Below are positions 8,208 to 62,598 of a DNA stretch of 64,000 bases, piece by piece. The DNA is taken from positions 63,801 to 127,800 of the forward strand of contig JAFLSG010000001.1 of assembly GCA_022511065.1 (NCBI GenBank). The letters run 5' to 3'. Under the pieces are notes generated by a model. The model searched no databases, was not told the DNA's origin, and was given only the letters and a program-made list of their open reading frames with translations. Numbering within the stretch: the first letter of the stretch is position 1; each line of letters opens with the position of its first letter. The position numbers and the translations under genes were made by a program. Source of the stretch: Prevotella sp. GTDB taxonomy: Bacteria; Bacteroidota; Bacteroidia; Bacteroidales; Bacteroidaceae.

Positions 8208-8263
8208 AAAGTTAAAAAAGGTTACTATAGTATTTAGGACTCATAAACATAGTGTTTAGGAAG
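8208..8263. repeat. left inverted-repeat arm with two TAGTRTTTAGG iterons
   Basis: aaagttaaaaaaggttactatagtattta, then iterons tagtatttagg at 8228-8238 and tagtgtttagg at 8250-8260. Confidence 0.6.
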
Positions 8264-8376
8264 TATAAGCATTATGTCTGCAAAATAACTGTTAAACATT
8301 GAAATATTATCTCATAAAGATTTTGTATTTTCACTAATTCTATTTTATTTTGCGAGTAAAATTAAATATACCTATT

Positions 8377-10830: not shown

Positions 10831-10891
10831 ATTTTGAAATACCCCACTGTTGCAAGTATATTGCTTCCACTTGCTAAGTATAGTCTTTGCG

Positions 10892-10953
10892 CTTCCTAAA
10901 CATAGTATTTACGGGTCGTAAACGTAAATACTATAGTAACGCTTTTTAACTTT
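10892..10953. repeat. right inverted-repeat arm with iterons and an internal 11-bp hairpin
   Basis: cctaaacatag 10895-10905. tagtatttacg 10903-10913 pairs with cgtaaatacta 10923-10933. The terminal 29 nt mirror the left arm. Confidence 0.6.
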
Positions 10954-14098: not shown

Positions 14099-16039
14099 AT
14101 GAGAAGACCACTGCTGACCTTGGCACTCACCCTTTCCATCGTCTGCCGTGCAGCCGTCACGCTGCCGCAGCTGTTCCAGTCGGGAATGGTGATGCAGCGA
14201 GGCAAACCCATCCCCGTCTGGGGCAAGGCAGATGCCGGTGAGAACGTAACCGTGAGTTTCAACGGAAAGACCTACCGCACCATCGCCGACGCGAATGGCT
14301 GCTGGCGCATAGACCTGCCGAAGATGAAGGCGGGAGGACCCTATGCGCTGAAAGTGAACGAGGTGGAATTGAAGGATGTGCTGATTGGCGACGTATGGCT
14401 CTGCTCGGGGCAGTCGAACATTGATGTGACGATAGAGCGTGTCTATCCGCAGTATGTAAGGGAGATAGATGCGTATGAGAATCCCGCCATCCGTATGTTC
14501 CGCGTGCAGAACGAGGCGAACACGCATGGCGTGAAGGATGATATATTGCCGACACCCATCAACTGGAAGTCCGTCACGAAGCAGAATGCTTGGTCTTTTT
14601 CTGCCGTCGGCTATTTTCTCGGTCGCCGTATGTTTGAAAAGACGGGTGTGCCGCAAGGTATCATCGTGAACAGCTGGGGAGGCACGCCCATCGAGGCTTG
14701 GATTTCCGCCGACTCGCTTCAGGCAGACTATCCCTTGCTTGTAGAGAAGACCCGCATCTATCAGAATGATGAGATGGTGAAGGCGCAGCAGCGGGCAAAC
14801 CAACTTGCCGACATTCAATGGCGCAACGTGCTTGATGCAAGTGACCCCGGCATCCGTGAGGATTGGACATCGGCAGATTACGATGACTCCGCATGGCAGA
14901 CGGTCAATCAATACGACACGGAGTGGGCAAAGAAAGACGGACGTGGTGTCATCGGAAGCATCTGGCTGAGGCAGCACGTTCAGATAGACAAAGAGCACGC
15001 TGGCAAGCCCGCCCGATTGCTGCTTGGCACGCTGTTCGACAGCGACTTCACGTATGTGAACGGCAAGGAGGTGGGGCGCACTTACTATCAGTATCCTCCC
15101 CGCCGCTACGATATTCCCGAAGGTCTGCTCAAAGAGGGTGACAACGTGATTACCATACGCTTCGTAAACAAGTATGGCATGGTGCATTTCATCAAGGAAA
15201 AGCCTTATATGTTAGTGTTCGGAGATGACCGTTTCAACCAAAACCCTCTTCCTGCTGATAAGATGCCACTTTATGAAAATTGGAAGCATCATTATGGCGC
15301 TAACATGCCATCTTGTCCAAGCGCGGATGTATCCTTGCAAAATCTGCCCACGACGCTCTACAATGCCGTGCTTTATCCCCTTGCCCCCTATGCCCTGTCG
15401 GGCGTTGTATGGTATCAGGGTGAATCGAACACGGGTAACCCCGCCCCATACGCTGATCTGCTGAAGAAGATGATGGGCAACTGGCGCGATCGCTGGGGGG
15501 ATGCTCAGATGCCATTCGTCATCGTGCAGTTGGCAAACTTCATGGAACCGAGTGAACAACCGCAGAATAGTGGTTGGGCAAGGCTCAGAGAGGCACAGCG
15601 CACAGTGGCAAAGGCAGATGAAAGGGCAGAACTTGCCGTTATCAACGACTTGGGCGAGACGGTGGATATCCATCCGCTTCGCAAGCGGGAAGTGGCTGAG
15701 CGTATCGGTCTGTGCTTCGATCGCCTGCTATATAATAATAAGGTGATGCTTTCGCCGGAGGTTGTATCGGGGGCCGTTGCCGATGGAAAGGTCGTGCTGA
15801 CGCTCGATCAACCCGTTCAGCCGGGTGCGATATATGAGTTTGAGATTGCAGGCGGCGATGGGCTTTTCCGCTCCGTGGAGGCTATTGCAGAAGGCAGTCG
15901 CATCACGCTGACACCCCAGTCCCTTACCAGTGCGCCCCTCACCGTGCGCTATGCCTGGAAGGATAACCCCATCAAGGCAAATGTCCGCTCGCTCAGCGGA
16001 TTGCCCATGTCATCATTTGAACTAATAATCAATCAATAA
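14099..16039 (+). CDS. sialate O-acetylesterase-like (SASA/SGNH) carbohydrate esterase
   Basis: Signal peptide. GDVWLCSGQSN and VVWYQGESN motifs. Confidence 0.85.
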   Translation: MRRPLLTLALTLSIVCRAAVTLPQLFQSGMVMQRGKPIPVWGKADAGENVTVSFNGKTYRTIADANGCWRIDLPKMKAGGPYALKVNEVELKDVLIGDVWLCSGQSNIDVTIERVYPQYVREIDAYENPAIRMFRVQNEANTHGVKDDILPTPINWKSVTKQNAWSFSAVGYFLGRRMFEKTGVPQGIIVNSWGGTPIEAWISADSLQADYPLLVEKTRIYQNDEMVKAQQRANQLADIQWRNVLDASDPGIREDWTSADYDDSAWQTVNQYDTEWAKKDGRGVIGSIWLRQHVQIDKEHAGKPARLLLGTLFDSDFTYVNGKEVGRTYYQYPPRRYDIPEGLLKEGDNVITIRFVNKYGMVHFIKEKPYMLVFGDDRFNQNPLPADKMPLYENWKHHYGANMPSCPSADVSLQNLPTTLYNAVLYPLAPYALSGVVWYQGESNTGNPAPYADLLKKMMGNWRDRWGDAQMPFVIVQLANFMEPSEQPQNSGWARLREAQRTVAKADERAELAVINDLGETVDIHPLRKREVAERIGLCFDRLLYNNKVMLSPEVVSGAVADGKVVLTLDQPVQPGAIYEFEIAGGDGLFRSVEAIAEGSRITLTPQSLTSAPLTVRYAWKDNPIKANVRSLSGLPMSSFELIINQ

Positions 16040-22143: not shown

Positions 22144-22432
22144 GAAGCCGAGTTATCCTACTCCTTTCCTTTCGGGATATTGATTAAAAAATCCCTGCCA
22201 AAAGTTCCATTGATTGGATGCGTTGGCAGGGATTTAAATTGGGGAACTATATATCTAATTGGCAGACTTCAAGCGGTAATAATGAATATATTGGCAACCT
22301 GAAATAGATTTTTTCGCGTAACAAGACCTCCATAGGGTGTATTCGTTTTGTAACCACACCATATACAACCAGTATTTTCTATATATACAAATTGTATATA
22401 GGGTAGTTACAAACCGCATACAGGCTCCATTC

Positions 22433-22510
22433 GCATCGTTTGAAGCCTCCAAACGCATTGAATTCAGCCTTCAAACGACCCGAATTCAGCCTCCAAACTT
22501 TTGGCTTGGA
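22433..22510. repeat. REP-like GCCTCCAAAC/GTTTGGAGGC hairpin cluster, locus 1
   Basis: cgtttgaagcctccaaacgcattgaattcagccttcaaac (22437-22476) is 39/40 identical to 58492-58531. Confidence 0.7.
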
Positions 22511-23437: not shown

Positions 23438-23980
23438 ATGCGGAAATTCTTTGCCATCCTATTTTTGGGAATCATTGCCTGCGTGAGCATCGACTACTGG
23501 TCGCCCCGTGACAAGTTTGCAGACTATGGGCAGACATTGCGGGAGCAGATTAACAGCGACCGGTTTTGTGCCTTTGAAGACCGGGATTGCGGTTTCGTGG
23601 TGCGCTATCCTTCTTTCTTTTCCAAGGAAGTGGAGGGCGAGGATGCAAGTTTTGGCCACCACCGCTTTGCCTATCACGATGCGCAAATTGACTCCGTGCT
23701 GGAAACCTCGGTGATTCCCAATCGCAGTCGTCTCTCTCCCAAGGAAATGATGGCGAAGGTGGCTGCGGAGAGATATGCCGCTTACACGGAACTAAGGCGT
23801 GACTCGTTCGTCATTGCCGGAACGCTTCACGAAAACGGAGGTTTTATTGACGGCTATGGCTATCGGGCAAAGTATGTGCTCCGCAACAATGCGTGGTATG
23901 TGCTTGCATTCTATTATCCCAAGGCTTACGAGCATTCCTTCGAGCGGCTGCTGAATGCAGTGGATGTGTGGGAAGGATAA
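23438..23980 (+). CDS. membrane-anchored hypothetical protein
   Basis: N-terminal TM helix (FFAILFLGIIACVSI). No recognised family. Confidence 0.45.
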   Translation: MRKFFAILFLGIIACVSIDYWSPRDKFADYGQTLREQINSDRFCAFEDRDCGFVVRYPSFFSKEVEGEDASFGHHRFAYHDAQIDSVLETSVIPNRSRLSPKEMMAKVAAERYAAYTELRRDSFVIAGTLHENGGFIDGYGYRAKYVLRNNAWYVLAFYYPKAYEHSFERLLNAVDVWEG

Positions 23981-23984
23981 GAAA

Positions 23985-24016
23985 ACAGCCGTAGGTGTTC
24001 CCTGCGGCTGTTTTTC
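23985..24016 (+). terminator. rho-independent terminator
   Basis: acagccgtagg pairs with cctgcggctgt, followed by tttttc. Confidence 0.6.
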
Positions 24017-24035: not shown

Positions 24036-24140
24036 TGATTGCAATGCCATTCGGTGGTCATAAGATGCCATTTTATTGTCATAAGATTGCTTCTTATGGT
24101 AACAAGATGGCATCTTATCGTGGCAAGGCGCCACATTATT
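24036..24140. repeat. tandem array of five 21-nt phased palindromic units (family 1, array A)
   Basis: Units begin at 24036, 24057, 24078, 24099 and 24120, for example gtcataagatgccattttatt and gtaacaagatggcatcttatc. Confidence 0.8.
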
Positions 24141-24156
24141 CAAATCGGCGATAGCC

Positions 24157-25341
24157 TTAATTATCCTCTGCAAAAGCTGCTGACTCTGCTTCGGCAATGA
24201 TTTCCTCGCGAGTCTTCTCCTTTGGTGTGATGGAGAGGTCGGAGAGGTCAAATTCATTGTCAAGGGCATCGGAAGTGGTAGTTTTTGAGGTAGGGATGCT
24301 TTTAGCTGTTTTATGAGCAGTCGAAGAGTCGGATATTTCAGTCGCTTTGGCGGCGGGAGCACCCGCTCTGCTATTGGAATTAGAAGCCTTACTACCAGAA
24401 ACAGAGGCTTTGAAATCAGAGGCAGCCGAAGATGCATCAGCATCGTTGGCATTACCGCCAGAAAAAGACTGCTCACCCGAAACGGCATGCTCTTGCGAAA
24501 TTATGAAATCCTCGGACTCCTGCTCCGTACTCGGGACAGCCATCGCAGGCTCCTCCTCCATCTTCGTGCGCTCGGTCTTGGCGGCGAAGATAGAGTCAAT
24601 GAATTGCGGTTCGCGACGAAGACGCTGCAAAGTATCCTTGGACGCACGCTGCTGAGCCTCTTTCTTGGAGTAACCCATACCCTTCTCACCCTCTACGCCT
24701 TCCAAGAGTACTTGGAAACTGAAGATGGGACTGCCATTGTCGTCCTTCTTCTGCTTCAGCATGCGGAACTCTATACGGACACGGTTTTTCTGAGACCACT
24801 CCAACAACTTGGACTTGAAATTGACTTCCTTGAAGGCCACCTTGTCGATGTTGATATACTTGCCAAGCACACGGTTCTCCCAGAACCACATACAGGCATC
24901 GTAGCCGCGGTCGAGATAGATGGCGCCGACAAGCGCCTCGAAGGCATTACCCTCTACATAACTATTATGAGAGGTAGAATGACCTGCAGAAAGCAGCAGA
25001 TTGCCGAGACCCATCTCGTTGGCTAATTTTCCGAGCGTCTCACGCGATACAAGTTTCGAGCGCGTATTGGTCAGAAAACCCTCACGCTTGCCCTCATAAT
25101 GCTTATAGACTACATAGCCCACTGCTGCATCGAGAATCGCATCGCCAAGGAACTCCAATCGCTCGTTGTTCAAAGGCCTGCCCTTCTCGTTGCGCTTGCG
25201 GATGCTCTTGTGCATCAACGCCTGCTTGTAGTAGTCAATGTTGCGCGGGTAAAAGCCCAGAATCTCGTATAGTGAAGAAAAAAGCTCCTTCTCCTTACGG
25301 AAAGGGAGCTTTAAGCGGTCGATAAAGTTATCAGGCCTCAT
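24157..25341 (-). CDS. rnc: ribonuclease III with about 140-aa low-complexity C-terminal extension
   Basis: NERLEFLGDAILD signature and a dsRBD. The start is set at ATG 25341 (MRPDNF...). The listed start 25413 would overlap fabF by 83 nt. Confidence 0.85.
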   Translation of the reverse strand: MRPDNFIDRLKLPFRKEKELFSSLYEILGFYPRNIDYYKQALMHKSIRKRNEKGRPLNNERLEFLGDAILDAAVGYVVYKHYEGKREGFLTNTRSKLVSRETLGKLANEMGLGNLLLSAGHSTSHNSYVEGNAFEALVGAIYLDRGYDACMWFWENRVLGKYINIDKVAFKEVNFKSKLLEWSQKNRVRIEFRMLKQKKDDNGSPIFSFQVLLEGVEGEKGMGYSKKEAQQRASKDTLQRLRREPQFIDSIFAAKTERTKMEEEPAMAVPSTEQESEDFIISQEHAVSGEQSFSGGNANDADASSAASDFKASVSGSKASNSNSRAGAPAAKATEISDSSTAHKTAKSIPTSKTTTSDALDNEFDLSDLSITPKEKTREEIIAEAESAAFAEDN

Positions 25342-26593
25342 ACTTCTTGAACACCACGCAAGCATTATGGCCACCGAAGCCGAACGTGTTGCTAAGTCCG
25401 GCACGCACTTCACGCTTCTGGGCCTTGTTGAATGTGAAATTCAGGTTGTAGTCAATCTCAGGATCCTCATCACCCTCCTCGTGGTTGATGGTCGGGGGAA
25501 CGATATCGTTCTGCACGGCAAGCACAGTCACCATAGCCTCCACCGCACCGGCAGCACCAAGCAGGTGGCCTGTCATAGACTTCGTGGAAGAGATATTGAG
25601 CTTGTAGGCTGCATCGCCGAACACCTCCTTGATGGCTTTCGCCTCGGAGATATCACCCACGGGTGTGGATGTTCCGTGAACGTTGATGTAGTCGATATCC
25701 TCGGGCTTCATACCTGCATCCTCAAGTGCGGTCTGCATCACGAGTTTCGCGCCAAGTCCCTCAGGGTGAGAGGCCGTGATATGATGCGCATCGGCACTCA
25801 TACCGGCACCAACCATCTCCGCGTAGATCTTTGCGCCACGAGCCTTCGCATGCTCAAGCTCCTCAAGAATGAAACAGCCTGCACCCTCGGCGATTACGAA
25901 TCCGTCGCGGCTTGCGCTGAACGGACGGCTTGCCCGCTGCGGGTCATCGTTGCGGGTGGAAAGCGCGTGCATAGCATTGAAGCCACCTACGCCAGTAGCA
26001 CAGATAGCAGCCTCGGCACCACCTGCCACGATAGCGTTTGCCTTGCCCAGACGAATGAGGTTGAAGGCATCGGCCAGCGCGTTGGAAGAAGATGCACAGG
26101 CAGAAGCCGTGATGTAGTTGGGACCGTGAAGGCCATACATGATGGAAATCTGTCCGGCAGCAATGTCGGCAATCATCTTCGGGATGAAGAAGGGATTGAA
26201 CTTGGGACCATCAGCCTCGTGCTGACCGTAATACTTCACTTCGTCCTCAAAGGTCTTGATACCGCCGATGCCCACGCCATAGACTACACCGATGCGATTT
26301 CTGTCTTCCTTCTCAAGATCCATCTTGCTGTCCTCCATTGCCTGCTTGGCGGCAATCATCGCAAGCTGCGTGTAGCGGTCCATCTTGCGTGCCTCCTTGC
26401 GGTCAAGGTAGTCATTGATGTTCAGGTTCTTCACCTCGCAGGCGAATGTCGTCTTGAAATTGGTTGTATCGAAACTTGTGATGGGGGCTGCTCCGCTCAC
26501 GCCGTCGAGCAGGTTCTTCCACATCTCCTCAGGAGTGTTGCCGACAGGCGTTACTGCGCCGAGTCCCGTTACAACTACTCTTTTTAATTCCAT
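25331..26593 (-). CDS. fabF: beta-ketoacyl-ACP synthase II
   Basis: 420 aa. Active-site region ACASSSNA, HGTSTPVGD and GFGGHNA. Confidence 0.95.
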   Translation of the reverse strand: MELKRVVVTGLGAVTPVGNTPEEMWKNLLDGVSGAAPITSFDTTNFKTTFACEVKNLNINDYLDRKEARKMDRYTQLAMIAAKQAMEDSKMDLEKEDRNRIGVVYGVGIGGIKTFEDEVKYYGQHEADGPKFNPFFIPKMIADIAAGQISIMYGLHGPNYITASACASSSNALADAFNLIRLGKANAIVAGGAEAAICATGVGGFNAMHALSTRNDDPQRASRPFSASRDGFVIAEGAGCFILEELEHAKARGAKIYAEMVGAGMSADAHHITASHPEGLGAKLVMQTALEDAGMKPEDIDYINVHGTSTPVGDISEAKAIKEVFGDAAYKLNISSTKSMTGHLLGAAGAVEAMVTVLAVQNDIVPPTINHEEGDEDPEIDYNLNFTFNKAQKREVRAGLSNTFGFGGHNACVVFKKYEA

Positions 26594-29544: not shown

Positions 29545-29610
29545 GCGTTTGGAGCGTGCAAACGCATCGTTTGGAGGCTGATTTCACCCCATTTGGAGGC
29601 TCCAAACGGC
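29545..29610. repeat. REP-like GTTTGGAGGC hairpin cluster, locus 2 (inverted relative to loci 1 and 3)
   Basis: gcgtttggagcgtgcaaacgc, cgtttggaggctg, and the perfect palindrome tttggaggctccaaa. Confidence 0.7.
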
Positions 29611-29641: not shown

Positions 29642-29725
29642 AAACACAACCTACCTTGCGGTAATAATAAGGTGCCATCTTATGCGCGTAAGATGCCTGC
29701 TTATCCGCATAACATGCCTTGTTAT
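29642..29725. repeat. family-1 21-nt units, array B (3-4 units)
   Basis: aataataaggtgccatcttat (29663-83), gcgcgtaagatgcctgcttat (29684-704) and ccgcataacatgccttgttat (29705-25). Confidence 0.7.
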
Positions 29726-29804: not shown

Positions 29805-30824
29805 ATGGCAATGACGGCAAAAGAGATTATCAGCTACATGGAAACGCTCCGCGACGAAAAGCAGCGGAAGATACTAATGCGCTTCTTCAAGACGGCACCA
29901 GGGGAGTACGGCTATGGCGACGAATTTCTCGGTATCAAAGTGCCGCGTACGCGGGAGGTGGTGAGAGTGGCAAAGGATTTGGCATTGAGCGAAGTGCCAG
30001 AATTGCTGATGAGCCGTTGGCACGAGGTGAGGCTCTGCGGTCTGCTGATACTTGTCGCAAAGTTTGAAAAGTTGGCGACGAAGCGGTTGGAGAATGATGT
30101 GGAGGCGACTCGCAAGCGTGATGAAATTGTGAAGCTCTATCTGAAATACGCCGAGCGTGCGAATAATTGGGATTTGGTGGACTTGTCCGTTCATAAGATT
30201 ATTGGGCATTGGTTGTTGTTACCGACCTTTCTCGGTAGCATGCCCGAGTATTCACCTGATGGGTTATCATGCGTGAATAAAGGGATAGATTCCAAATCTC
30301 CAATGGAGGATTTAGCATATTCAAGGGTAGGTGAAGAATTCAAAGGGTCTGGTGAAATATTCAGAGAATTAGATGGGGCTTTCAAAGAGGCAGATAGAGG
30401 ACTCATAGAATCAGATTCTAATTTCCCAAAATTAGATGAAAAAACTCAGATGACGAACGGAGAACCTCAAAAAGTAATCCCAAGCCTTAATCGAGCTTAT
30501 AAGCTGACCATCCTCGACTCGTTGGCTCAAAGCCCCTGTCTGTGGCTTCAGCGCATGAGTATCGTCAGTTCTTGGAAGACCTCTCAGCAAGGCGACCCGT
30601 CTTGGTGTCTGCGCTATGCGGAAATTCATCTTCACCATTCCCACGACCTGATGCACAAGGCTGTCGGCTGGATGCTCCGCGAGATGGGTAAGCGTGTCAG
30701 TATGGATCTGCTCCGCGATTTCCTTCGTCAGCATGCCCACGAAATGGCGCGTACCACGCTCCGCTATGCCATAGAGAAGATGTCTGAGCAGGAACGAAGG
30801 ATGTGGATGGCAAAGCCTACTTGA
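29805..30824 (+). CDS. DNA alkylation repair protein (AlkD-like HEAT-repeat glycosylase family) carrying an internal insertion
   Basis: FFKTAPGEYGYGDEFLGIKVP..., NNWDLVD and HKAVGWMLRE are typical of the family. 339 aa against roughly 230-240 aa expected. Confidence 0.75.
   Translation: MAMTAKEIISYMETLRDEKQRKILMRFFKTAPGEYGYGDEFLGIKVPRTREVVRVAKDLALSEVPELLMSRWHEVRLCGLLILVAKFEKLATKRLENDVEATRKRDEIVKLYLKYAERANNWDLVDLSVHKIIGHWLLLPTFLGSMPEYSPDGLSCVNKGIDSKSPMEDLAYSRVGEEFKGSGEIFRELDGAFKEADRGLIESDSNFPKLDEKTQMTNGEPQKVIPSLNRAYKLTILDSLAQSPCLWLQRMSIVSSWKTSQQGDPSWCLRYAEIHLHHSHDLMHKAVGWMLREMGKRVSMDLLRDFLRQHAHEMARTTLRYAIEKMSEQERRMWMAKPT
30234..30506 (+). repeat. in-frame 21-nt (heptad) periodic low-GC insertion inside the alkD-like gene
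   Basis: Codons for F/L/Y recur every 21 nt (30318, 30339, 30360, 30381, 30402, 30423). Units include ttcaaagggtctggtgaaata, ttcagagaattagatggggct and ttcaaagaggcagatagagga. Confidence 0.6.
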
Positions 30825-40875: not shown

Positions 40876-41295
40876 ATGAGAAGAACAATTTCCACATTTT
40901 TCGTGCTGTTCGCCAATGTCGTCATATTGGCGCATGCTGTTGTTCCGCATCATCACCACAACAAGAGTTTCGCCGCCGTTGTCAATATTTTAGGCGGTCA
41001 TGCCGATGAGGAGCGATTTCATGCTCAATGCGCCAACTCGCACCATCATGACAACGATTCGGGCGAGTGTCTCATCAACGAGGCTTATGCGCCGGCTAAG
41101 GAGGCATTTGAGCAGAATAACATGCCTGGTTACGATGATAACCAGCCTGGTTATGATGCTGACTTTGGCAGGTATATCGTTGTAGCGCAGCCGGAGGTGA
41201 CTGCATACGCATATCGGCAACAACCATACGATGATGACGACCATCTTGCGCCTATATATCGCACTAACGGACTCCGTGCGCCGCCTTTTTGCTGA
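40876..41295 (+). CDS. His-rich membrane-anchored small protein (probable metal-binding, RND-operon associated)
   Basis: MRRTISTFFVLFANVVILAHAVVPHHHHNK...SHHHDNDSGEC. The start is set at the first ATG after the promoter; the listed ORF starts at 40774. Confidence 0.5.
   Translation: MRRTISTFFVLFANVVILAHAVVPHHHHNKSFAAVVNILGGHADEERFHAQCANSHHHDNDSGECLINEAYAPAKEAFEQNNMPGYDDNQPGYDADFGRYIVVAQPEVTAYAYRQQPYDDDDHLAPIYRTNGLRAPPFC
41116..41157 (+). repeat. two family-1 21-nt units in frame inside the His-rich gene (array D)
   Basis: aataacatgcctggttacgat and gataaccagcctggttatgat. 41138-41154 has perfect palindromic arms ATAACCAG-C-CTGGTTAT. Translated as NNMPGYD DNQPGYD. Confidence 0.7.
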
Positions 41296-45983: not shown

Positions 45984-47630
45984 ATGATTATGAGAGAAAA
46001 TATGATAAGCAGTAGCCTGAGGGTGATAACCAGGCTTGTTATGATGATAAAGTGCCTGGTTATGACGATAAGATGCCTGGTTAAGATGATAAGATGCCTG
46101 GTTAAGATGATAAGATGCCATGTTATGGCAATGGAAGAAATAAATGTTGTTATGAACGGTATGAAATCCTTAACACTTGATGTGAAAGCATCTGCAAGTG
46201 ATTTGATAGCAGAGGCAAGGGGGGTAAAGGTATCAGTAGGCGGTAAGGGGCTAATTGCAGGCGGTAAGGGATTGCTTGCTGGCAACAAGGATTTGATTGC
46301 AAGCCGCAGGGATTTGATAGCAAGCAGCATAAGGCTTGCAGCAATCGTTGTCTTTTTGTTTGTGATGCTGCCCGTTTCGGGGCAAAATATGTCTGCCGTT
46401 ATGCAAGGTACTTTCACCGATGAGCCAAGTGCTCCTATTACTGAGCAGAATGCTTCAACAATTGGGCAAATGACTCCTATAACGATGCAAGATGCTCTCG
46501 CAACAAGCAAAGATGTCTATACTCCTATATTAAAGACAATCGAACAAAACAGCCTGACGCTCGATGCGCTAAAGAAACAAGCGGAGGCACGGAAAACCGG
46601 CAACAGGACGGGGCTCACCCCCGCCAATCCAGAAGTTGAGTTCGGTTATTTGTGGGGCAACCCTGTTGCCATCGGCAACCGAAAGGATATCAGCGTCCGC
46701 CAGACATTCGATTTCCCCACGGTGTATGCCCAGCGGAGCAAACTGGCGGATGCACAAGATGACAATGCGGAATATGAATATCGCGCGCAACGCGCTGACT
46801 TGCTGCTTGCGGCAAAAAGAACCTGCATCGAACTGGTTTATTATAACGCTCTGAGCGCACTCTATGCCGAGCAAACCGAAAATGCTCGCCAGATTATGAA
46901 TGCCGTTGAGAAGATGCGGCAGGCGGGCGAGGCGAACATATTGGAGTATAATAAGGCGGTGCTGAACCACACGAACATCAGCGGTGAACTGAATCGCACG
47001 AATCTTGAGCGCCGTCGTTTGCTCGCTGAACTGACAAGGATGAACGGTGGACAGCCGATAGTGTTCGATTGCGCATCCTATGGTTCCCACGCCCTGCCCG
47101 CTGACTTCGATAGTTGGTATGCCGAGGCTGAGGCCAATGCTCCTGCACTCCATTATCTCAAGGCGCAGGCAGAAGCAAGCAATCGGCAGGTCAGTCTGAC
47201 GAAAGCCTCAACGCTTCCGAAGTTTTCGGTGGGTTATATGGGCGAGTTCGTGACTGGTGAAAAGTTTCAGGGCATCACCGTGGGTATGAGCATCCCCCTT
47301 TGGGAAAACAAGAACAAAGTAAGACAAGCCGAAGCCGAGGCGCGAACGGCCGTACAACTTGCGGAAGATGCTCGGATGCAGTATTATAACCGCCTGAAAA
47401 GCCTCTATGCTGAAATCGCAGGCCTGCAGGAGAATGTGCGGCAATACGATGCCGTGCTTCAGCAGAACGACAATGCCCGTTTGCTCCTCAAAGCCTATCA
47501 AAGCGGTGAGATTTCCCTCTTGGAATATCTGCTCGAAATGGAATATCATTTCACCGCGCTTGATAAACGGTTGCAGGCAGAGCGAGATTTGGAGTTGGCA
47601 TTGGCGGAATTGAATGCTTATCAGTTATAA
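45984..47630 (+). CDS. TolC family outer-membrane efflux protein (CzcC-like); true start uncertain
   Basis: The mature part (from about 46386) is TolC-like with two repeat halves. The signal-like h-region RLAAIVVFLFVMLPVSGQ lies about 120 codons into the ORF. The only in-frame ATGs upstream of it lie in or before the repeat arrays. Confidence 0.75.
   Translation: MIMRENMISSSLRVITRLVMMIKCLVMTIRCLVKMIRCLVKMIRCHVMAMEEINVVMNGMKSLTLDVKASASDLIAEARGVKVSVGGKGLIAGGKGLLAGNKDLIASRRDLIASSIRLAAIVVFLFVMLPVSGQNMSAVMQGTFTDEPSAPITEQNASTIGQMTPITMQDALATSKDVYTPILKTIEQNSLTLDALKKQAEARKTGNRTGLTPANPEVEFGYLWGNPVAIGNRKDISVRQTFDFPTVYAQRSKLADAQDDNAEYEYRAQRADLLLAAKRTCIELVYYNALSALYAEQTENARQIMNAVEKMRQAGEANILEYNKAVLNHTNISGELNRTNLERRRLLAELTRMNGGQPIVFDCASYGSHALPADFDSWYAEAEANAPALHYLKAQAEASNRQVSLTKASTLPKFSVGYMGEFVTGEKFQGITVGMSIPLWENKNKVRQAEAEARTAVQLAEDARMQYYNRLKSLYAEIAGLQENVRQYDAVLQQNDNARLLLKAYQSGEISLLEYLLEMEYHFTALDKRLQAERDLELALAELNAYQL
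46002..46127. repeat. family-1 21-nt units, array C1 (six units)
   Basis: atgataagatgcctggttaag occurs twice, plus variants. The array begins 22 nt after the czcA-like stop. Confidence 0.8.
46239..46343. repeat. second 21-nt tandem array (C2, five units, different sequence family)
   Basis: ggcggtaaggggctaattgca, ggcggtaagggattgcttgct, ggcaacaaggatttgattgca, agccgcagggatttgatagca and agcagcataaggcttgcagca. Confidence 0.75.
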
Positions 47631-50833: not shown

Positions 50834-53098
50834 CTACAAATTGATGGAGGCAGAAAGTTGCTTGGCGCTGACGGTCAGGGTAGCCTTCCCCTTCGGGCTG
50901 TTGTGGCGGATTACTGCCAATGCACGGCCTTTCCAAGCATGGTGGGTCGCGTCAAAATACGGCTCCTCACTCTTGATGTCCGCATTGCCTGCCCCTAATA
51001 GCGTGCCGTTGCCACGAACATTGAAAGTAAGTTCATCGTCAGCCTCGGGCACGAGATTACCTTGTGCATCGACAATCTCAACGGTCACAAACGTGAGTTC
51101 ACGACTCTTACCGCTTTCAGCCGTGAGCCTGATAGCGGCGGGCTTGCCTGCCGTCTGCAAGGTAACAGACTCCCCACCGGCTTCCGCACGAAGCGTACCG
51201 GGAGTATAGGGCAGGGTAAACAATGCCATCATCTTCTCAGTAGGCTGCTCGGCAATGAGTTGGTCGTTCAGATACAACTTGACAGACGGCAGAGGACTAT
51301 AAACCTCCACGGTGATTTCCTTGCCTTCCCAACCTTCCCAAGTCCAGCTTTCAAACGTTGGGTGCGTGCCCCAGAGGGTGGTCTTAATGCTCCCGTGATA
51401 CCCCTCCGGCTCACGGACAGCCATATAGATTTGCTCAACAGGCATTTTATTCGCATAAGATGCCTTGTTATCATCATAAGATGCCATCTTATCAGCGTCA
51501 GCAGGCTTGCTGTTCCAGAGGATGGAGCGATAGTGACTGACAGGCTTGCGCAGACCCGTCAGATCCACGTCACCGCAATAGGCAGCGTGCCACGGATAGA
51601 GCGGACGCTCCCAATGCTCGCCCGGAGCATCCCCCTCGTAATACCACCGCCCGATGCCCGACTCGCCAAGATAGTCAAGCCCCGTCCACACAAAGTCGCC
51701 AATCACGTAAGGGAGCCGCGTCGTGCGCTCATAGTTCTCCCAAGTATCACGCGCATAGGATTCCGTCTGCATCATCACCCGATTGGGCACGCGCTCGTGG
51801 TCGCTCTCAGCCTTGCGCATCATATAGTTGTAGCCTACGATATCGTGCTCGGCGGCAAGCGGGTCATAGATGTCCCAGTCGGCATCCCACGCGGCGAGGG
51901 CGGAGGTTACGGGGCGGTCGTCGAGCGTCTTGATGTATTGTATCATCTTGTGGGCGGTCTTGATGACCTCTATTTTCTTGCGCTCAATCACCTCGTTGCC
52001 GATAGACCAGCAGAAGATGCTCGGATGATTGCGGTCGCGGCACACCATCGCCTGCAGGTCATGCTGCCACCACTCGTCAATCAGCGTGGAATAGTCGTGG
52101 TCGTTCTTTGCATCGCGCCAGCCGTCGAAAGCCTCGTCAATCACCAGCAGACCCAATTCGTCGCACGCATTCAGAAACGCCTCTGAGGGCGGATTATGTG
52201 AGGTGCGCACGGCATTGAAGCCTGCCTCTTTCATCAGCCGAGCCTTGCGATACTCGGCATCATCGTAGGCTGCCACGCCAATGATACCGTTGTCGTGATG
52301 CAGGCACGCGCCGTTGAGATTCAAGGGCTTACCGTTCAGCAACAAACCCTTTTCCGCAGAATATTCTATCGTGCGGATGCCGTAGGTAACGGGAATCTTG
52401 TCGCCTTCAGCCTCAATCTCCGTATGGTAGAGATAAGGATTATCGGGCGACCACAACTGGGGATTGTCAATGTGGATTGTGCGCTGAATGGGTTCATTCG
52501 TGCCGTCTTCACGGACAAGCATCGCATTCAGTTCAACGGTGTGCGTATCGGGAGTTCTCACCTGGACGCTCCAGTCATCAATGTATGTCTTGCCTGTGGT
52601 CACCATCCATACGTTGCGATAGATGCCGCTCCCCGCATACCATCGGCAGTTCTTTTGCCGTGAATTATCCACGCTTACCGTCACCTCGTTCTTGCCAAAA
52701 TGGAGGTAAGGCGTGGCATCCACCCAGAAGGATGAGTATCCGTAGGGCCATCCGCCGGCAAGATGACCGTTCACATAGACCTTTGAATCCATATACACGC
52801 CCTCGAAGTAGAGCCTGATTTTCTTGTCCTGATATTCCTTGCCGAGTGTCAGCACGCGGCGATACCATCCCTTGCCAGTCGGCAGGTATCCGCCATCGTT
52901 TCCTGCCGGGGTGGCGGCATCGAATCTTTGCAGGATGCTCCAGTCGTGAGGCAGGGTTACAGGCTGTGCCTTCGTGAAATCACTATCGTTCAAAACGAAC
53001 TGCCAGCCGTCGTTCAGCAGCTGTTTACGGGCGGCTTCTTTTGCCCCTATTGCCGTGGTCAGCAGCACCATAAAGCAGAGGATAATACCTTTTTTCAT
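50834..53098 (-). CDS. glycoside hydrolase family 2 (beta-galactosidase-like)
   Basis: Signal peptide. NAVRTSHNPPS and WSIGNEV catalytic motifs. Confidence 0.9.
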   Translation of the reverse strand: MKKGIILCFMVLLTTAIGAKEAARKQLLNDGWQFVLNDSDFTKAQPVTLPHDWSILQRFDAATPAGNDGGYLPTGKGWYRRVLTLGKEYQDKKIRLYFEGVYMDSKVYVNGHLAGGWPYGYSSFWVDATPYLHFGKNEVTVSVDNSRQKNCRWYAGSGIYRNVWMVTTGKTYIDDWSVQVRTPDTHTVELNAMLVREDGTNEPIQRTIHIDNPQLWSPDNPYLYHTEIEAEGDKIPVTYGIRTIEYSAEKGLLLNGKPLNLNGACLHHDNGIIGVAAYDDAEYRKARLMKEAGFNAVRTSHNPPSEAFLNACDELGLLVIDEAFDGWRDAKNDHDYSTLIDEWWQHDLQAMVCRDRNHPSIFCWSIGNEVIERKKIEVIKTAHKMIQYIKTLDDRPVTSALAAWDADWDIYDPLAAEHDIVGYNYMMRKAESDHERVPNRVMMQTESYARDTWENYERTTRLPYVIGDFVWTGLDYLGESGIGRWYYEGDAPGEHWERPLYPWHAAYCGDVDLTGLRKPVSHYRSILWNSKPADADKMASYDDNKASYANKMPVEQIYMAVREPEGYHGSIKTTLWGTHPTFESWTWEGWEGKEITVEVYSPLPSVKLYLNDQLIAEQPTEKMMALFTLPYTPGTLRAEAGGESVTLQTAGKPAAIRLTAESGKSRELTFVTVEIVDAQGNLVPEADDELTFNVRGNGTLLGAGNADIKSEEPYFDATHHAWKGRALAVIRHNSPKGKATLTVSAKQLSASINL
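51430..51492 (-). repeat. three family-1 21-nt units in frame inside GH2 (array E)
   Basis: tcgcataagatgccttgttat and catcataagatgccatcttat. 51476-51492 has perfect arms ATAAGATG-C-CATCTTAT. Translated as DKMASYD DNKASYA NKMPVEQ. Confidence 0.75.
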
Positions 53099-58359: not shown

Positions 58360-58408
58360 GTTTTTTTCGTTCAAATCACCAAATATAGATAATGATAAAT
58401 GTGTGTAT

Positions 58409-58471
58409 CGGATGGCTGATTATTTGGTGAAGATGCCGTCTTGTCATCGTAAGATGGCGGTGTGTGATGTG
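58409..58471. repeat. degenerate family-1 21-nt units (array G)
   Basis: aagatgccgtcttgtcatcgt (58430-50) and aagatggcggtgtgtgatgtg (58451-71). Confidence 0.55.
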
Positions 58472-58480
58472 GACAGGGGT

Positions 58481-58554
58481 TGAATTCAATGCGTTTGAAG
58501 CCTCCAAACGCATTGAATTCAGCCTCCAAACAAGTCGTTTGAAGCCTCCAAACG
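58481..58554. repeat. REP-like GCCTCCAAAC hairpin cluster, locus 3
   Basis: Three copies of (c)gtttgaagcctccaaac(g). 39/40 identical to locus 1 over 40 nt. Confidence 0.7.
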
Positions 58555-58600
58555 AAAAACATGTATCTTGATGCTCTGAGTATTCTGCCGAAATACTCCC

Positions 58601-58663
58601 TGTATTCAGCCTATATACATGTTGTATATGCCCAGAATACTGGGTGTATATAGGCTGAATACA
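58601..58663. repeat. perfect 18-bp inverted repeat with nested hairpin
   Basis: tgtattcagcctatatac (58601-18) pairs with gtatataggctgaataca (58646-63). The loop contains cccagaatactggg. Confidence 0.7.
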
Positions 58664-58752
58664 ATGCAGATATATCCGGCAAAGTCTATACCATAACCAC
58701 CGAAACTTTTTGAAATCATTGGAAAAAGTTTCTTTATTTCTCCGAAAATGCG

Positions 58753-58761: not shown

Positions 58762-58950
58762 AGCCGCGATACCGCAAGAGGTGTCGCCCGTGAAGGTTCG
58801 CTTAGCCGCGATTAAATGGGAATGTGAGTGTGAATCTCCGACTGTCCCGCAGCTGTGAACTCCTTTATGTCGCTCAAGCAACAAACCATTGCCCGTTTGG
58901 ACGAGAAGGCGCTTGAGGGTGGAGGAAAGTCAGAAGACCTGCCTTTATCG
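58762..58950 (+). promoter_or_regulatory. cobalamin (B12) riboswitch
   Basis: AAAUGGGAAUGUGAGUGUGAAUCUCCGACUGUCCCGCAGCUGUGA core, CCAUUGCCC...GAGAAGGCG, and the B12 box AGUCAGAAGACCUGCC at 58928-58943. Confidence 0.85.
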
Positions 58951-59205
58951 GAAAAATGCCGGATGCTCTCGATGTAAGAGCGCGAGGCGATACGGGAAAT
59001 ATTTCGGGACAAAGGGAGCGGCGGCAGCCGTGCCACATCTTGCTTGGGCGTGCCGGTCACATGGTTGGCTCGGGGCGCAAAGCCTGGAGTGATACGTGTA
59101 TTATTATATAGGTATTGACGGAGATCCTGTCGTGAGATAGCATCTCCTTCGTTAAAAAATGAGTTTGTATGCGGCGGAAGCCGATGATATATGGCAAAAT
59201 TAACG

Positions 59206-59220: not shown

Positions 59221-62200
59221 ATGAAGATAGAAGAATTGTTTGAGCGGTGTGCGCGTTTGGCGGAGGTGGCCGAGCCAACGGCAGATGCCAACCGCTATAT
59301 GCACGAGACACTCGTGCTGTGCTGTGCCGAAGGGCTGCACAATTCAGGGCAGGCCTACGGCAATGTATTCTCGCAGGTGGATTATCTCTGCAAGCAGCAC
59401 GAAGTGCGCACAAGCGACAGGATTGCCATCCAGACGATGCGGCGGCACTCAAACCATCCGACGCCACTCAGCAGGGAAGACCTGATGTACGATGTCCGTG
59501 CGCTCTGCCTGCTGATTTCCGCCGTCTTCTCGGTGGATATTCCCGGCAATCTCGTGCGACTTATTCCCACGGAGAACAAGCCTTCGGCGCATCGGGCGGG
59601 CATCGACCACAAATATGTGCGCTGCATCGTCAGCCGATGGAATGACCAACTGATCTATGCAGACACGGACGACGGGGAGATTGCCATTGACTACACCTAC
59701 AATGAAAACGGTGCGGACTTCGGTTATCTGAAGAAATTGCTGTGCGAGGGGATGCAGTTGAATCTGTTGGACTGCAAATTAGTGCGCGCAGACGAGGCTG
59801 CTGATTGCGACGATAAAGAGGCTGATTACAATGATAAGGAGGCATCTTATGATAATAACCAGGCTTCTTACGAGGGGATGCAAATACTCCGCCCCGGCCT
59901 TGTGGTGGTGGAGCCGGATTTCATGGTGGATATTTCCGCCATTGCCCGCTGCTTTACCGACTACGGTCATCACCCGCTGCTCTACACCACGAACCGCCTG
60001 AAGAAGCGGGCTGTGACGCAGCCCATCCTCTTGGGAAACTTTGCGGGTACGGCTTTGGACGGGATTATCAACAGCGATGCGTTTCAGATGGGTGACGCCA
60101 TCACAAACATCTTTCGCGAACAGGCGCTGCAATTCTCTTGCCTGAACGATTTCGACGGCGGACAATTCAAGGAGGATGCCAGTCAGCAAGTGGGGCATAT
60201 ACAAGAGGCAGTGCAGGTGTTTTTTAGTGAGCATGACCGCTATCAGGCGCTCTTGGAACCGTCATTCGTCTGCGAGCGTTTGGGACTTCAGGGGCGTGTC
60301 GATCTGATGACCGCCGACATGAAGCTGTTAGTGGAGCAGAAAGCGGGCAAGAACATGAACATAGAACACCCCTCCGAGGGCAACCAGCAGCGTGAGGACC
60401 ACTACGTTCAGCTGCTATTATATTATGGTGTGCTGCGCTATAACTTCGGGATTTCCGACGAGAAAGCAGACATTCGCCTGCTTTATTCCAAGTATCCCGC
60501 CCGCGAAGGCTTGATGGTCGTGAACTTCTACCGCCAACTATTCCGCGATGCCATCAAGTTTCGCAACCAAGCCGTTGCCACGGAATATATGATGGCACGG
60601 GAGGGATTCGGTAAGATTCTGCCCCATCTTGCACTCCCGACCATCTACGGTGGTGCGAAGCGAGATACCTTTTTCACCCGGTTTATCGAGCCGGAGTTGT
60701 TGGAGATAGAACGGCATCACGCCGCCCTTTCGCCCTTTGAGCGTACCTATTATACCCGTATGATGACCTTTGTCTATCGCGAGCAGCTTTATGCAAAGGT
60801 CGGTTCGCAGGAAGGTAAATCCGCTTCGGTGGCTGATCTCTGGAACATGCCGCTGCACGAAAAGCGTGATACGGGTAACATCTATACCGACTTGACCATC
60901 ATTGACCGCCAGCAGTCTGCCCCCCATCGCGGCTATGACGTGCTGACTTTCGCCATTCCCGAGCAGGGAAGCGACTTCCTTCCGAACTTCCGCCGCAACG
61001 ATATGGTGTATCTTTATGCCTCGGAGGGCGAACCGGATGTCTGTAAGAGCATCTTGTATAAGGGTACGATAGCGCAGATAGGGGAGGGCGAGGTCATGGT
61101 AAGGCTAAACGACGGACAGCAAAATCCGAATGTATTCCCACAGGAACGGAAGTACGTGATAGAGCATGGAGACTCTGACCTGACGACGACGAGCAACATC
61201 CGCAGTCTGCACGAACTGATGTCGGCGCAGCCTTCGCAGCGGAATCTGCTGCTCGGGCAGCGTGCGCCGGAGGCGGATATGGCGCAAACGCTCTCCAAAA
61301 ACTATCATCCCGACTATGACGAGGTGCTGCTGAAAGCCAAGCAAGCCAAGGATTACTTCCTGTTGATTGGGCCTCCTGGTACGGGAAAGACCTCGAAAGC
61401 ACTGCGCTATATGGTAGAGGAAGCACTCACTACAGGCGGCGAGGCGCTTCTGCTGCTGAGCTATACCAACCGCGCTGTGGATGAAATCTGCGCGATGCTC
61501 AGCGGTGCGGGGTTTGATTACGTGCGGATTGGCAGGGAAAGCTCGTGCGACCCTCGCTTTGCCAGTCATCTGCTGGAGCATCAGTTGGGGGAGAATCCGA
61601 AACTGGATGATGTCCGTCGCCGGCTCTTACAGGTTCCTATCATCGTGGGAACCACCTCGATGATTCAGGCAAACGCCTCCATTTTCGCGCTGAAACCGTT
61701 CGGACTGGCAATTATCGACGAGGCTTCACAGATATTAGAGCCGAACTTGGTAGGCATCTTGTCGAGTGTGCGGAAGTTCATACTGATAGGCGACCACAAG
61801 CAATTGCCCGCTGTCGTGCAGCAGCCGGAGGCGGAGAGCAAGGTCGCGGACGAGTGTCTGCAAGCCATCTGCCTGACCGATTGCCGCCATTCGCTCTTCG
61901 AGCGGCTGCTCCGTTGGGAGCGGAAGTGCGGGCGTGAGCAGTTTGTTGGCGTGCTTCGCAAGCAGGGGCGCATGCATCCGGCGATAGCGGAATTCCCTTG
62001 CAGGATGTTCTATGCTGCCGAGCAATTAGAGCCTGTGCCTTGCGAGCATCAGCAAGAAACGTCGCTCGGCTACGACTTAGCGGCGGAAGACGCATTGGAT
62101 GAACGGCTCAAAGCGCAGCGTATGCTGTTCATTCCCTCGGAAGATGAGCGGGGAATCGGCATCCCATGCTCCGACAAGGCAAACCTTTCGGAAGCGCGCA

Positions 62201-62598
62201 TCGTGGCAGACTTGCTGCGGCGCATCCATCGTTTCTACGGGGAACGCTTCGATGCAGACACGACGGTGGGCGTGATTGTGCCTTACCGCAACCAGATAGC
62301 GATGATACGCAAGGAGGCGGAGAAGCTGGGAATTGCGGAATTGGCGGGTGTCACGATTGACACCGTGGAGCGCTATCAGGGTTCGCAGCGCGATGTAATC
62401 ATCTATTCATTCACCGTCAGCCACGGCTATCAGCTTGATTTCCTGACCGCCAACAGCTTTGAGGAAGAGGGCAAGACGATAGACCGCAAACTGAATGTGG
62501 CCATTACTCGCGCCCGCTGCCAACTGCTGCTGACGGGCAATGAGCGCATACTCCGCCAGAACGCCATATTCGATGAACTGATAAATTTCTGTAAATAA
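59221..62598 (+). CDS. PD-(D/E)xK nuclease plus SF1 (Dna2/Upf1-like) helicase fusion protein
   Basis: GRVDLM...LVEQKAGK (D-ExK), Walker A GPPGTGKT, DEASQ, GDHKQLPAVV, RMHP, TVERYQGSQRDVIIYS, LNVAITRAR. Confidence 0.85.
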   Translation: MKIEELFERCARLAEVAEPTADANRYMHETLVLCCAEGLHNSGQAYGNVFSQVDYLCKQHEVRTSDRIAIQTMRRHSNHPTPLSREDLMYDVRALCLLISAVFSVDIPGNLVRLIPTENKPSAHRAGIDHKYVRCIVSRWNDQLIYADTDDGEIAIDYTYNENGADFGYLKKLLCEGMQLNLLDCKLVRADEAADCDDKEADYNDKEASYDNNQASYEGMQILRPGLVVVEPDFMVDISAIARCFTDYGHHPLLYTTNRLKKRAVTQPILLGNFAGTALDGIINSDAFQMGDAITNIFREQALQFSCLNDFDGGQFKEDASQQVGHIQEAVQVFFSEHDRYQALLEPSFVCERLGLQGRVDLMTADMKLLVEQKAGKNMNIEHPSEGNQQREDHYVQLLLYYGVLRYNFGISDEKADIRLLYSKYPAREGLMVVNFYRQLFRDAIKFRNQAVATEYMMAREGFGKILPHLALPTIYGGAKRDTFFTRFIEPELLEIERHHAALSPFERTYYTRMMTFVYREQLYAKVGSQEGKSASVADLWNMPLHEKRDTGNIYTDLTIIDRQQSAPHRGYDVLTFAIPEQGSDFLPNFRRNDMVYLYASEGEPDVCKSILYKGTIAQIGEGEVMVRLNDGQQNPNVFPQERKYVIEHGDSDLTTTSNIRSLHELMSAQPSQRNLLLGQRAPEADMAQTLSKNYHPDYDEVLLKAKQAKDYFLLIGPPGTGKTSKALRYMVEEALTTGGEALLLLSYTNRAVDEICAMLSGAGFDYVRIGRESSCDPRFASHLLEHQLGENPKLDDVRRRLLQVPIIVGTTSMIQANASIFALKPFGLAIIDEASQILEPNLVGILSSVRKFILIGDHKQLPAVVQQPEAESKVADECLQAICLTDCRHSLFERLLRWERKCGREQFVGVLRKQGRMHPAIAEFPCRMFYAAEQLEPVPCEHQQETSLGYDLAAEDALDERLKAQRMLFIPSEDERGIGIPCSDKANLSEARIVADLLRRIHRFYGERFDADTTVGVIVPYRNQIAMIRKEAEKLGIAELAGVTIDTVERYQGSQRDVIIYSFTVSHGYQLDFLTANSFEEEGKTIDRKLNVAITRARCQLLLTGNERILRQNAIFDELINFCK
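59791..59871 (+). repeat. family-1 21-nt units in frame inside the nuclease-helicase (array F)
   Basis: gacgataaagaggctgattac, aatgataaggaggcatcttat and gataataaccaggcttcttac. Translated as DDKEADY NDKEASY DNNQASY. Confidence 0.7.

Follow-up and report, generated by a model that had tools for sequence, protein, structure and literature searches.

Dispersed 21-nt phased palindromic repeats of an uncultured Prevotella form short tandem arrays between genes and, in frame, inside them

We study a family of short palindromic repeats, here called family 1, in a 64,000-nt stretch of DNA (the window) that comes from the chromosome of an uncultured Prevotella sp. MAG. The gene content of the window is that of an ordinary chromosome: leuS, metG, an acpP-fabF-rnc cluster, genes for sigma factors and glycosidases, an operon for RND efflux, and cobalamin genes. 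The array with which we begin, array A, lies between two convergent genes, as an earlier note on this DNA had it: a 180-aa lipoprotein-like ORF (23438-23980, plus strand) and rnc (24157-25365, minus strand), whose product matches the Pfam RNase III and dsrm domains. The C-terminal third of rnc (24157-24620) encodes a Ser/Ala/Glu-rich low-complexity tail of about 150 residues past the dsRNA-binding domain, and the called length of RNase III runs from 393 to 402 aa across strains. Between the two genes, the hairpin at 23986-24010 is plausibly a bidirectional terminator: it folds with -24.0 kcal/mol on the plus strand and -21.4 kcal/mol on the minus strand (z about -8) and has U-runs on both strands. 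In contig L004 a double substitution changes the stem from CCGTAGG...CCTGCGG to CCGAAGG...CCTTCGG with the pairing kept, a compensatory change which supports a functional terminator hairpin. Array A occupies the rnc side of the spacer, between the rnc stop codon (24157-24159) and this terminator. Contigs L004 and L005 both stop inside array A. Contig L003, which lacks the array, was considered as an empty site and rejected, since it carries a different downstream gene (for a membrane protein) and so reflects either a rearrangement or a chimeric contig. The features discussed below are as follows.

23986 to about 24010-24015, both strands: putative bidirectional intrinsic terminator, a hairpin common to the 180-aa ORF and rnc
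24039-24139, no strand assigned: array A, three strong units (24060, 24081, 24102) and decayed edges at 24039 and 24123, in the rnc 3' UTR
29646-29725, no strand assigned: array B, three strong units (29667, 29688, 29709) and one decayed, intercistronic between a Sel1-repeat gene and a DNA-alkylation-repair gene, both on the plus strand
41096-41154, plus strand: array C, two strong units and one weak, in frame in a DUF6769 gene (40876-41295)
46005-46126, plus strand: array D, five strong units and one decayed, mostly arm hybrids, filling the 180-nt spacer between the stop of an AcrB-type pump gene (45980) and the NCBI start of a TolC-family gene (46161)
51434-51513, minus strand: array E, two strong units and two weak, in frame in a GH2 glycosidase gene (50834-53098)
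59792-59871, plus strand: array G, two strong units, one weak and one decayed, in frame in an SF1 helicase-like gene (59221-62598)
15258-15316, plus strand: SASA site, a good unit at 15258 (21 bits) and a doubtful one at 15300 (16 bits), in a sialate O-acetylesterase-like gene
58407-58465, no strand assigned: decayed trace of three units in 21-nt register (3-8 bits), upstream of cobU
contig L035, 5583-5667, outside the window: array of four units between convergent lgt and mutS

The unit of family 1 is a 17-nt consensus palindrome, ATAAGATG-S-CATCTTAT or its variant with the ATAACCAG arm, which together with a 4-nt linker makes a phased unit of 21 nt. We take the census of units with a symmetrised position weight matrix (PWM) and count those of 14 bits or more. 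By this measure the window holds 19 units against 0.47 per shuffle, and a search with the pattern ATAASNNGNCNNSTTAT, allowing at most one mismatch, likewise finds 19 matches (shuffles: mean 0.25, maximum 2). TRF reports period-21 arrays at 24044-24118, 29667-29725, 41117-41158, 46025-46119, 51454-51494 and 59800-59843. The dispersed family that the earlier note proposed is therefore real, and it occupies seven clear loci and one decayed locus in the window. Two details of that proposal need trimming. The recurrences it listed are genuine with the exception of 58409-58471, which is a mere decayed trace, and its count of five units for array A is generous: the three strong units there score 22-24 bits, but the two edges are badly decayed, at -11.5 bits (24039) and 3.3 bits (24123). 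The edge units of arrays are decayed. Including 18 kb beyond the ends of the window, we find about nine arrays in 82 kb, or about one per 9 kb, with roughly four of the nine loci intragenic. Family-1 arrays recur in independent assemblies from other samples and so are no assembly artefact.

Comparison of the units with one another shows what is kept and what is free to vary. Positions 1-4, 8, 10 and 14-16 are almost invariant, and the inner arm is variable, with GATG, CCAG and CAAG types. The two arm variants described earlier exist, and hybrids between them are real and common. Perfect symmetry is rare, with 2 of 20 units, and the palindrome therefore belongs to the consensus. Covariation between the two arms of a unit is not significant (complementary pairing at 51 of 80 inner positions, where random re-pairing of arms gives 46.6 +/- 4; P = 0.16), and single-unit hairpins are thus not maintained by compensation. 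The unit ends are ATAA and TTAT, and between them stand linkers as different as GATG, TGTC, GGTA, GCGC, CCGC and CATC, among others. Although its sequence is array-specific, the linker is always 4 nt long, and neighbouring units are sometimes identical (46068 and 46089), a combination that points to local duplication. Overall, adjacent units share 200 matching positions as direct copies and 169 as inverted copies, and we reject a BIME-like alternating orientation since neighbours are mostly closer as direct copies. An all-against-all comparison of the 80-nt flanks of eight arrays revealed neither common flanking sequence nor terminal inverted repeats nor target-site duplications, the only matches being chance ones of 7-9 nt.

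Now we consider the copies inside genes. The earlier suggestion that arrays can live in frame within genes holds, with clean insertions in the GH2 glycosidase (judged against more than 100 homologues) and the helicase (about 50). All coding arrays are read in the frame xAT-AAG-ATG-SCN-NNN-TAT, which gives D/N-K/N-M/Q-P/A-S/G-Y and hence heptads such as DKMASYD, DDNQPGY and NDKEASY. In full, array C encodes NNMPGY DDNQPGY, array E encodes SKPADA DKMASYD DNKASYA NKMPVEQ, and array G encodes ADEAADC DDKEADY NDKEASY DNNQASY. In the GH2 glycosidase the array amounts to an insertion of about 21 aa at a loop which, in the alignment, is only 3-5 aa long in 118 of 120 homologues. Residues 534-551 of the AlphaFold model (pTM 0.84) have pLDDT below 50 and no secondary structure, and the inserted loop is predicted on this model to be disordered. 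An insertion in the same loop of the GH2 homologue P0002 was set aside, as it is no 21-nt repeat. The helicase homologues, collected by exhaustive HMMER search, align as residues 1-187 and about 220-496 and break exactly at array G, where the window protein has an insert of about 28 aa; in some 50 homologues this place is a short variable linker between the motifs EGMQLNLLDC and P.L.VVEPDF. The SASA site is less clear-cut: the esterase has about 10 extra residues relative to PDB 9h4u and 9ega, and the doubtful unit at 15300 overlaps natively conserved residues.

These coding copies could be read the other way round, with the heptad D-D-K-M-P-G-Y selected at the protein level for the function of its hosts and the intergenic copies being dead remnants. 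That every coding copy uses the one hydrophilic frame is what such selection would give. Yet the hosts (GH2 glycosidase, helicase, DUF6769 protein and esterase) are functionally unrelated, the inserts occupy variable loops, with disorder predicted, the intergenic arrays have stops in that frame or lie beyond terminators, and the conservation is palindromic at the level of DNA. A synthetic query of concatenated heptads matched no protein family, a result for which composition filtering is possibly to blame. We find this reading hardly credible.

Around array G the sequence holds two further observations. An exact 11-nt direct repeat, GAGGGGATGCA, stands at 59746-59756 and 59872-59882, with a spacing of 126 nt (6 x 21); it brackets the helicase insert together with the LNLLDC motif and resembles the left arm of the unit, GATAAGATGCC. 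This repeat could be a microhomology footprint of the origin of the array, or a decayed unit. We do not take it for a target-site duplication, since the conserved host motif LNLLDC lies between its copies. The helicase-like gene, of 1125 aa, lies downstream of a cobalamin riboswitch (58777-58960, 83 bits) and is followed by genes for a TonB-dependent receptor and a periplasmic binding protein (BtuB/BtuF-like); it is unusual for a B12-regulated operon to begin with a helicase gene.

How widely is the family spread? We scanned a two-unit pattern against GTDB genomes (one per species, 185,579 in all), viral contigs and JGI metagenome contigs. The GTDB species genomes give nine matches, all of them single chance matches, and the viral contigs give one chance match. 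Among 17 matches in the metagenome scan, the only true arrays are those of L016, L018 and L026, which are sister types: they keep the 17+4 geometry and the ATAA/TTAT ends and differ in the inner arms. The seven-unit array of L026 adjoins a terminator hairpin between convergent ORFs, as array A does. Phased-array loci in other Bacteroidota-like contigs lie at L039 7615-7791, L026 1103-1250, L016 7254-7487 and L018 1-134. One of the related species compared below, a common Prevotella, carries, downstream of rnc, a 23-nt array of the 18-nt palindrome TTATCCAACGTTRGATAA, and 21-nt arrays found elsewhere are built on RTAAGTAGGCCACTTAY (+GAAA) and ATAAGTCAACGAGTTAT (+TGGA). The nearest relatives are about 70-75% identical in GH2 and about 92% in FabF. 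Because the neighbourhoods of the GH2 orthologues are not conserved, we compare relatives at the genes themselves and at the rnc-fabF cluster only; within this scope family-1 units are absent from the 45 kb that surround GH2 orthologues (about 70-75% identity), and none lie downstream of rnc in three related Prevotella loci with 92%-identical FabF. The scan of related genomes that the earlier note called for thus gives a lineage-restricted family, with matches at chance level in 185,579 species.

Within the lineage the arrays are constant. Array length is identical in 6-16 near-identical strain variants of the three intragenic host proteins, and the sequence of array C is unchanged in 16. In L042, a strain of about 96% identity, arrays A and B stand at the same places with the same numbers of units and differ by point substitutions only, which have accumulated about as fast as in the non-coding DNA beside them. 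The sampled strains, a small sample of 96-100% identity, show no polymorphism of family 1 in presence or copy number, and the VNTR behaviour for which the earlier note proposed a test does not appear: unit numbers are the same in every strain sampled. Being fixed in strains and missing in relatives and GTDB species, the family is lineage-specific and not a hypervariable VNTR. L042 (SRR16767955) also joins window position ~31262 straight to ~23433, with the DNA-alkylation-repair and Sel1 genes now upstream of the 180-aa ORF, either by a rearrangement or as the head-to-tail junction of a 7.8-kb block. Arrays as breakpoints of the rearrangement are rejected, as the positions do not coincide.

Quantitative inspection of the repeat periods reveals a second regularity. 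A scan of periods from 9 to 33 finds tandem arrays in the window at 21 (seven regions) and 22 (five regions), with zero or one at any other period. Every intragenic array in the window has a period of 21 nt, and the 22-nt arrays are all intergenic. The latter belong to other families of 17-nt palindromes, GTTTGRAG-S-CTYCAAAC and CTAAACATAGTRTTTAG. This quantisation at 21/22 bp, with the 22-bp families kept out of genes, would be a clean natural case of a reading-frame filter on selfish DNA. The constancy of the 17+4/5 geometry across unrelated families is more than slippage alone explains and could point to a protein with a fixed footprint. One version of this idea is that the 17-bp plus 4-5-bp geometry, in at least four unrelated families of this genome and in sister families of other uncultured Bacteroidota, comes from a single copying machine with a footprint of two helical turns. 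Such a machine, be it a structure-specific nuclease, a transposase or a templated repair pathway, would paste palindromes into intergenic DNA and ORFs alike. We hold it to be unlikely, but worth stating for what it would mean: if true, it would be a lineage-specific generator of new enzyme surface loops, and a dedicated mobilising activity, if real, would be of a new kind for the phylum.

The same geometry also invites the binding array that the earlier note suggested. Here a dimeric or nucleoid-associated protein would sit on each 17-bp palindrome, all on one face of the helix, and the two-turn spacing would build a higher-order complex, as at iterons or BIME-gyrase/IHF sites. Phased operators of this type would make sense of half-sites that share a consensus without unit-by-unit compensation and readily form hybrids (independent half-site recognition), of a linker fixed at 4 nt but variable in sequence, and of unrelated palindrome families that share the 17+4/5 geometry with periods of 21-22 only. 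The arrays, however, occupy 3' UTRs, spacers between cistrons and ORFs, not promoters, and many units are degenerate and drift about neutrally between strains. Among the genes of the window, no candidate binding protein lies near the arrays, nor any transposase, integrase, rep gene or DNA-binding gene, and a replication origin context is absent around them. Finally, close relatives with the same housekeeping genes lack the family, which implies that any function is dispensable and species-specific. On balance, we consider phased operators a decidedly unlikely explanation.

Next to DNA-level properties stands the behaviour of the transcribed arrays. The minus-strand RNA of array A folds with -42.5 kcal/mol (z = -5.2), its units pairing with each other, and the other intergenic arrays fold with z = -3.5 (B), z = -7.0 (the lgt/mutS array) and z = -9.4 (L026). 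The complementarity of units to one another lets the intergenic arrays form long inter-unit hairpins. Hybrid units alone give no fold. Weak folds are the rule in the intragenic arrays (z = -1.1 to -2.6), so the hairpin property is not universal, and the fold of array D is weak or not significant. Hairpin prediction, which the earlier note called for, thus gives strong folds for intergenic arrays A and B and not for array D and the intragenic arrays.

It is plausible that intergenic arrays in 3' UTRs act at the RNA level. A stronger claim would be that the family as such is a selected RNA element whose hairpins protect 3' ends, aid termination, uncouple cistrons or feed RNase III, as those of functional REPs do. 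The intergenic arrays all lie inside predicted transcription units and their folds beat shuffles (z = -3.5 to -9.4); a stop codon on one side and a bidirectional terminator on the other enclose both array A and the array of L026; and the bias in location is REP-like (PMC3733652). Several results do not fit. Compensatory covariation within units is absent, the folds of array D and of the intragenic copies are weak or fall short of significance, relatives do without arrays at the same loci, and Rfam has no match at the arrays, its one match in the window being the cobalamin riboswitch. We rate a selected RNA element, too, as unlikely.

To place the family among known systems, we compare it with the short repeats that it resembles most. 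REPs, known from Enterobacteria, Pseudomonas and others, are short imperfect palindromes of high copy number which form species-specific families, occur as singletons and tandem clusters, have one end marked by a conserved tetranucleotide, GTAG or CGTC, and lie mostly in transcribed regions between convergent or unidirectional genes, with few inside ORFs (PMC3733652). Family 1 resembles REP/BIME in that a 17-nt palindrome, slightly under the usual 20-40 bp, is dispersed in 19-20 strong units, and in that adjacent units can pair into larger hairpins. It differs in having AT-rich outer arms on a 17-nt unit, with no GTAG/CGTC tag conserved at its units, in being strictly phased head-to-tail with a 4-nt linker where REPs are variably spaced and often form inverted pairs, and in having about four of nine loci inside genes. 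REPIN-RAYT systems have a cognate single-copy RAYT gene (a Y1/HUH transposase) with repeats on its flanks; no RAYT gene is seen among the genes of the window and its 18-kb flanks (82 kb).

From the same phylum comes BrickBuilt, a MITE of Porphyromonas gingivalis with a dispersed 23-nt tandem repeat at 19 loci (PMC4596501). It shares with family 1 restriction to a species and arrays of units of about two turns, without spacers and with a copy number that varies per locus; but BrickBuilt has conserved leader and tail flanks and small inverted-repeat ends and is always intergenic, whereas family 1 has a period of 21, palindromic units, unshared flanks and in-frame copies in GH2, helicase and DUF6769 genes. 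Rickettsia palindromic elements (RPE) lie in frame in unrelated housekeeping and metabolic genes, where their peptide segments are tolerated (PMC10969869). The GH2 and helicase arrays are similar in being in-frame palindromic insertions absent from nearly all homologues; an RPE, though, comes as one piece of some 100-150 bp whose encoded peptide is conserved, and family 1, in a different lineage, is a 21-nt unit repeated two to six times. We found no description of the family-1 element in the literature, but the earlier note's remark that it was aware of no such element in Bacteroidota needs qualifying in view of the 23-nt repeat of BrickBuilt (PMC4596501), with REP and RPE as counterparts elsewhere (PMC3733652, PMC10969869). 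Since defining features of REP/BIME, BrickBuilt and RPE each fail, family 1 is a new variant and a member of none of them.

Two further systems share single features with family 1. MIRUs of mycobacteria are classic VNTRs made of non-palindromic units of 46-100 bp, in tandem at many loci and often between cistrons; the likeness is one unit family tandemly repeated at many loci, although the copy number of family 1 is constant among the sampled strains. Plasmid iterons are direct repeats of 17-22 bp phased at about 21-22 bp on one face of the helix and clustered at the origin beside a rep gene, while family 1 is palindromic, dispersed among chromosomal housekeeping genes and has no rep gene with it.

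Taken together, we think it somewhat more probable than its opposite that family 1 consists of lineage-specific, non-autonomous palindromic repeats, selfish or near-neutral, and that they are the Prevotella counterpart of REP/BIME, BrickBuilt and RPE. The copied module would be the 17-bp quasi-palindrome or a short run of units, with nothing else attached. Seeds would have been placed at many chromosomal sites in the ancestor of the species, be it by transposition, template switching or gene conversion, and each seed would then have grown locally in 21-bp steps of tandem duplication, presumably by slippage, or by unequal exchange, helped by its self-complementarity; the arrays would now be decaying through point mutation. 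Inside ORFs, selection would act as a filter, such that only periods that are a multiple of three, in a stop-free hydrophilic frame, persist, and the surviving copies would give their hosts disordered loops of heptads where the protein surface tolerates them. The intergenic arrays, in transcribed 3' UTRs and spacers, would pair into hairpins and may incidentally stabilise or terminate transcripts. The placement of intergenic arrays, between convergent pairs (A and L035) or unidirectional genes (B and D), fits the REP pattern (PMC3733652); arrays C, E and G and the unit at 15258 are inside ORFs. Counted against the selfish-repeat reading are the lack of polymorphism of family 1 among the sampled strains, the constant 17+4/5 geometry across unrelated families, the weak folds of intragenic arrays and the fact that no mobilising enzyme, donor copy or insertion intermediate is seen in 82 kb.

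Small palindromic repeats are well studied in Proteobacteria and hardly at all in gut and rumen Bacteroidota, and uncultured Prevotella are seen here to carry dense, species-specific populations of them. It is important to note the practical side of this: the repeats break short-read assemblies, equip 3' UTRs and operon spacers with strong RNA hairpins, and put heptad loops of 14-28 residues into enzymes such as the GH2 glycosidase and the helicase. Their units could serve as strain- or species-specific markers.

Finally, the window contains repeats of other kinds beside family 1. The 22-nt family GTTTGRAG-S-CTYCAAAC occurs at 22412-22510, 29546-29608 and 58478-58563, mixed with a GAATTCA arm variant; each of these loci is intergenic and lies about 30-300 nt from a family-1 unit or array. 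The third family, of 22-nt period and palindrome CTAAACATAGTRTTTAG, has one locus (8221-8291) between the divergent nadA and a Schlafen-like helicase gene and one (10847-10934) between convergent NUDIX and sigma-factor genes. Inverted-repeat modules TGTATTCAGCCTATATACA / TGTATATAGGCTGAATACA (19 nt, 100% complementary) at 58579-58667 and 22338-22422 share repeat-rich intergenic regions with the 22-nt arrays. In the DNA-alkylation-repair gene (29805-30824) an in-frame 21-nt array at 30317-30459 is made of units of TTCAAAGGGTCTGGTGAA type, with heptads EFKGSGE IFRELDG AFKEADR and so on. In the window this array, which lies inside a conserved domain, exceeds its L042 counterpart (96% identity) by 37 aa, a strain difference which indicates that arrays of such kind are gained or lost in units of the period. 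Another in-frame 21-nt array, of about seven heptads (ASDLIAE ... GGKGLIA GGKGLLA GNKDLIA SRRDLIA), stands at 46194-46340, within the N-terminus annotated for the TolC-family protein and before the apparent signal peptide; the start codon of this gene is uncertain, with NCBI placing it at 46161 and the ENA gene call giving 535 aa.
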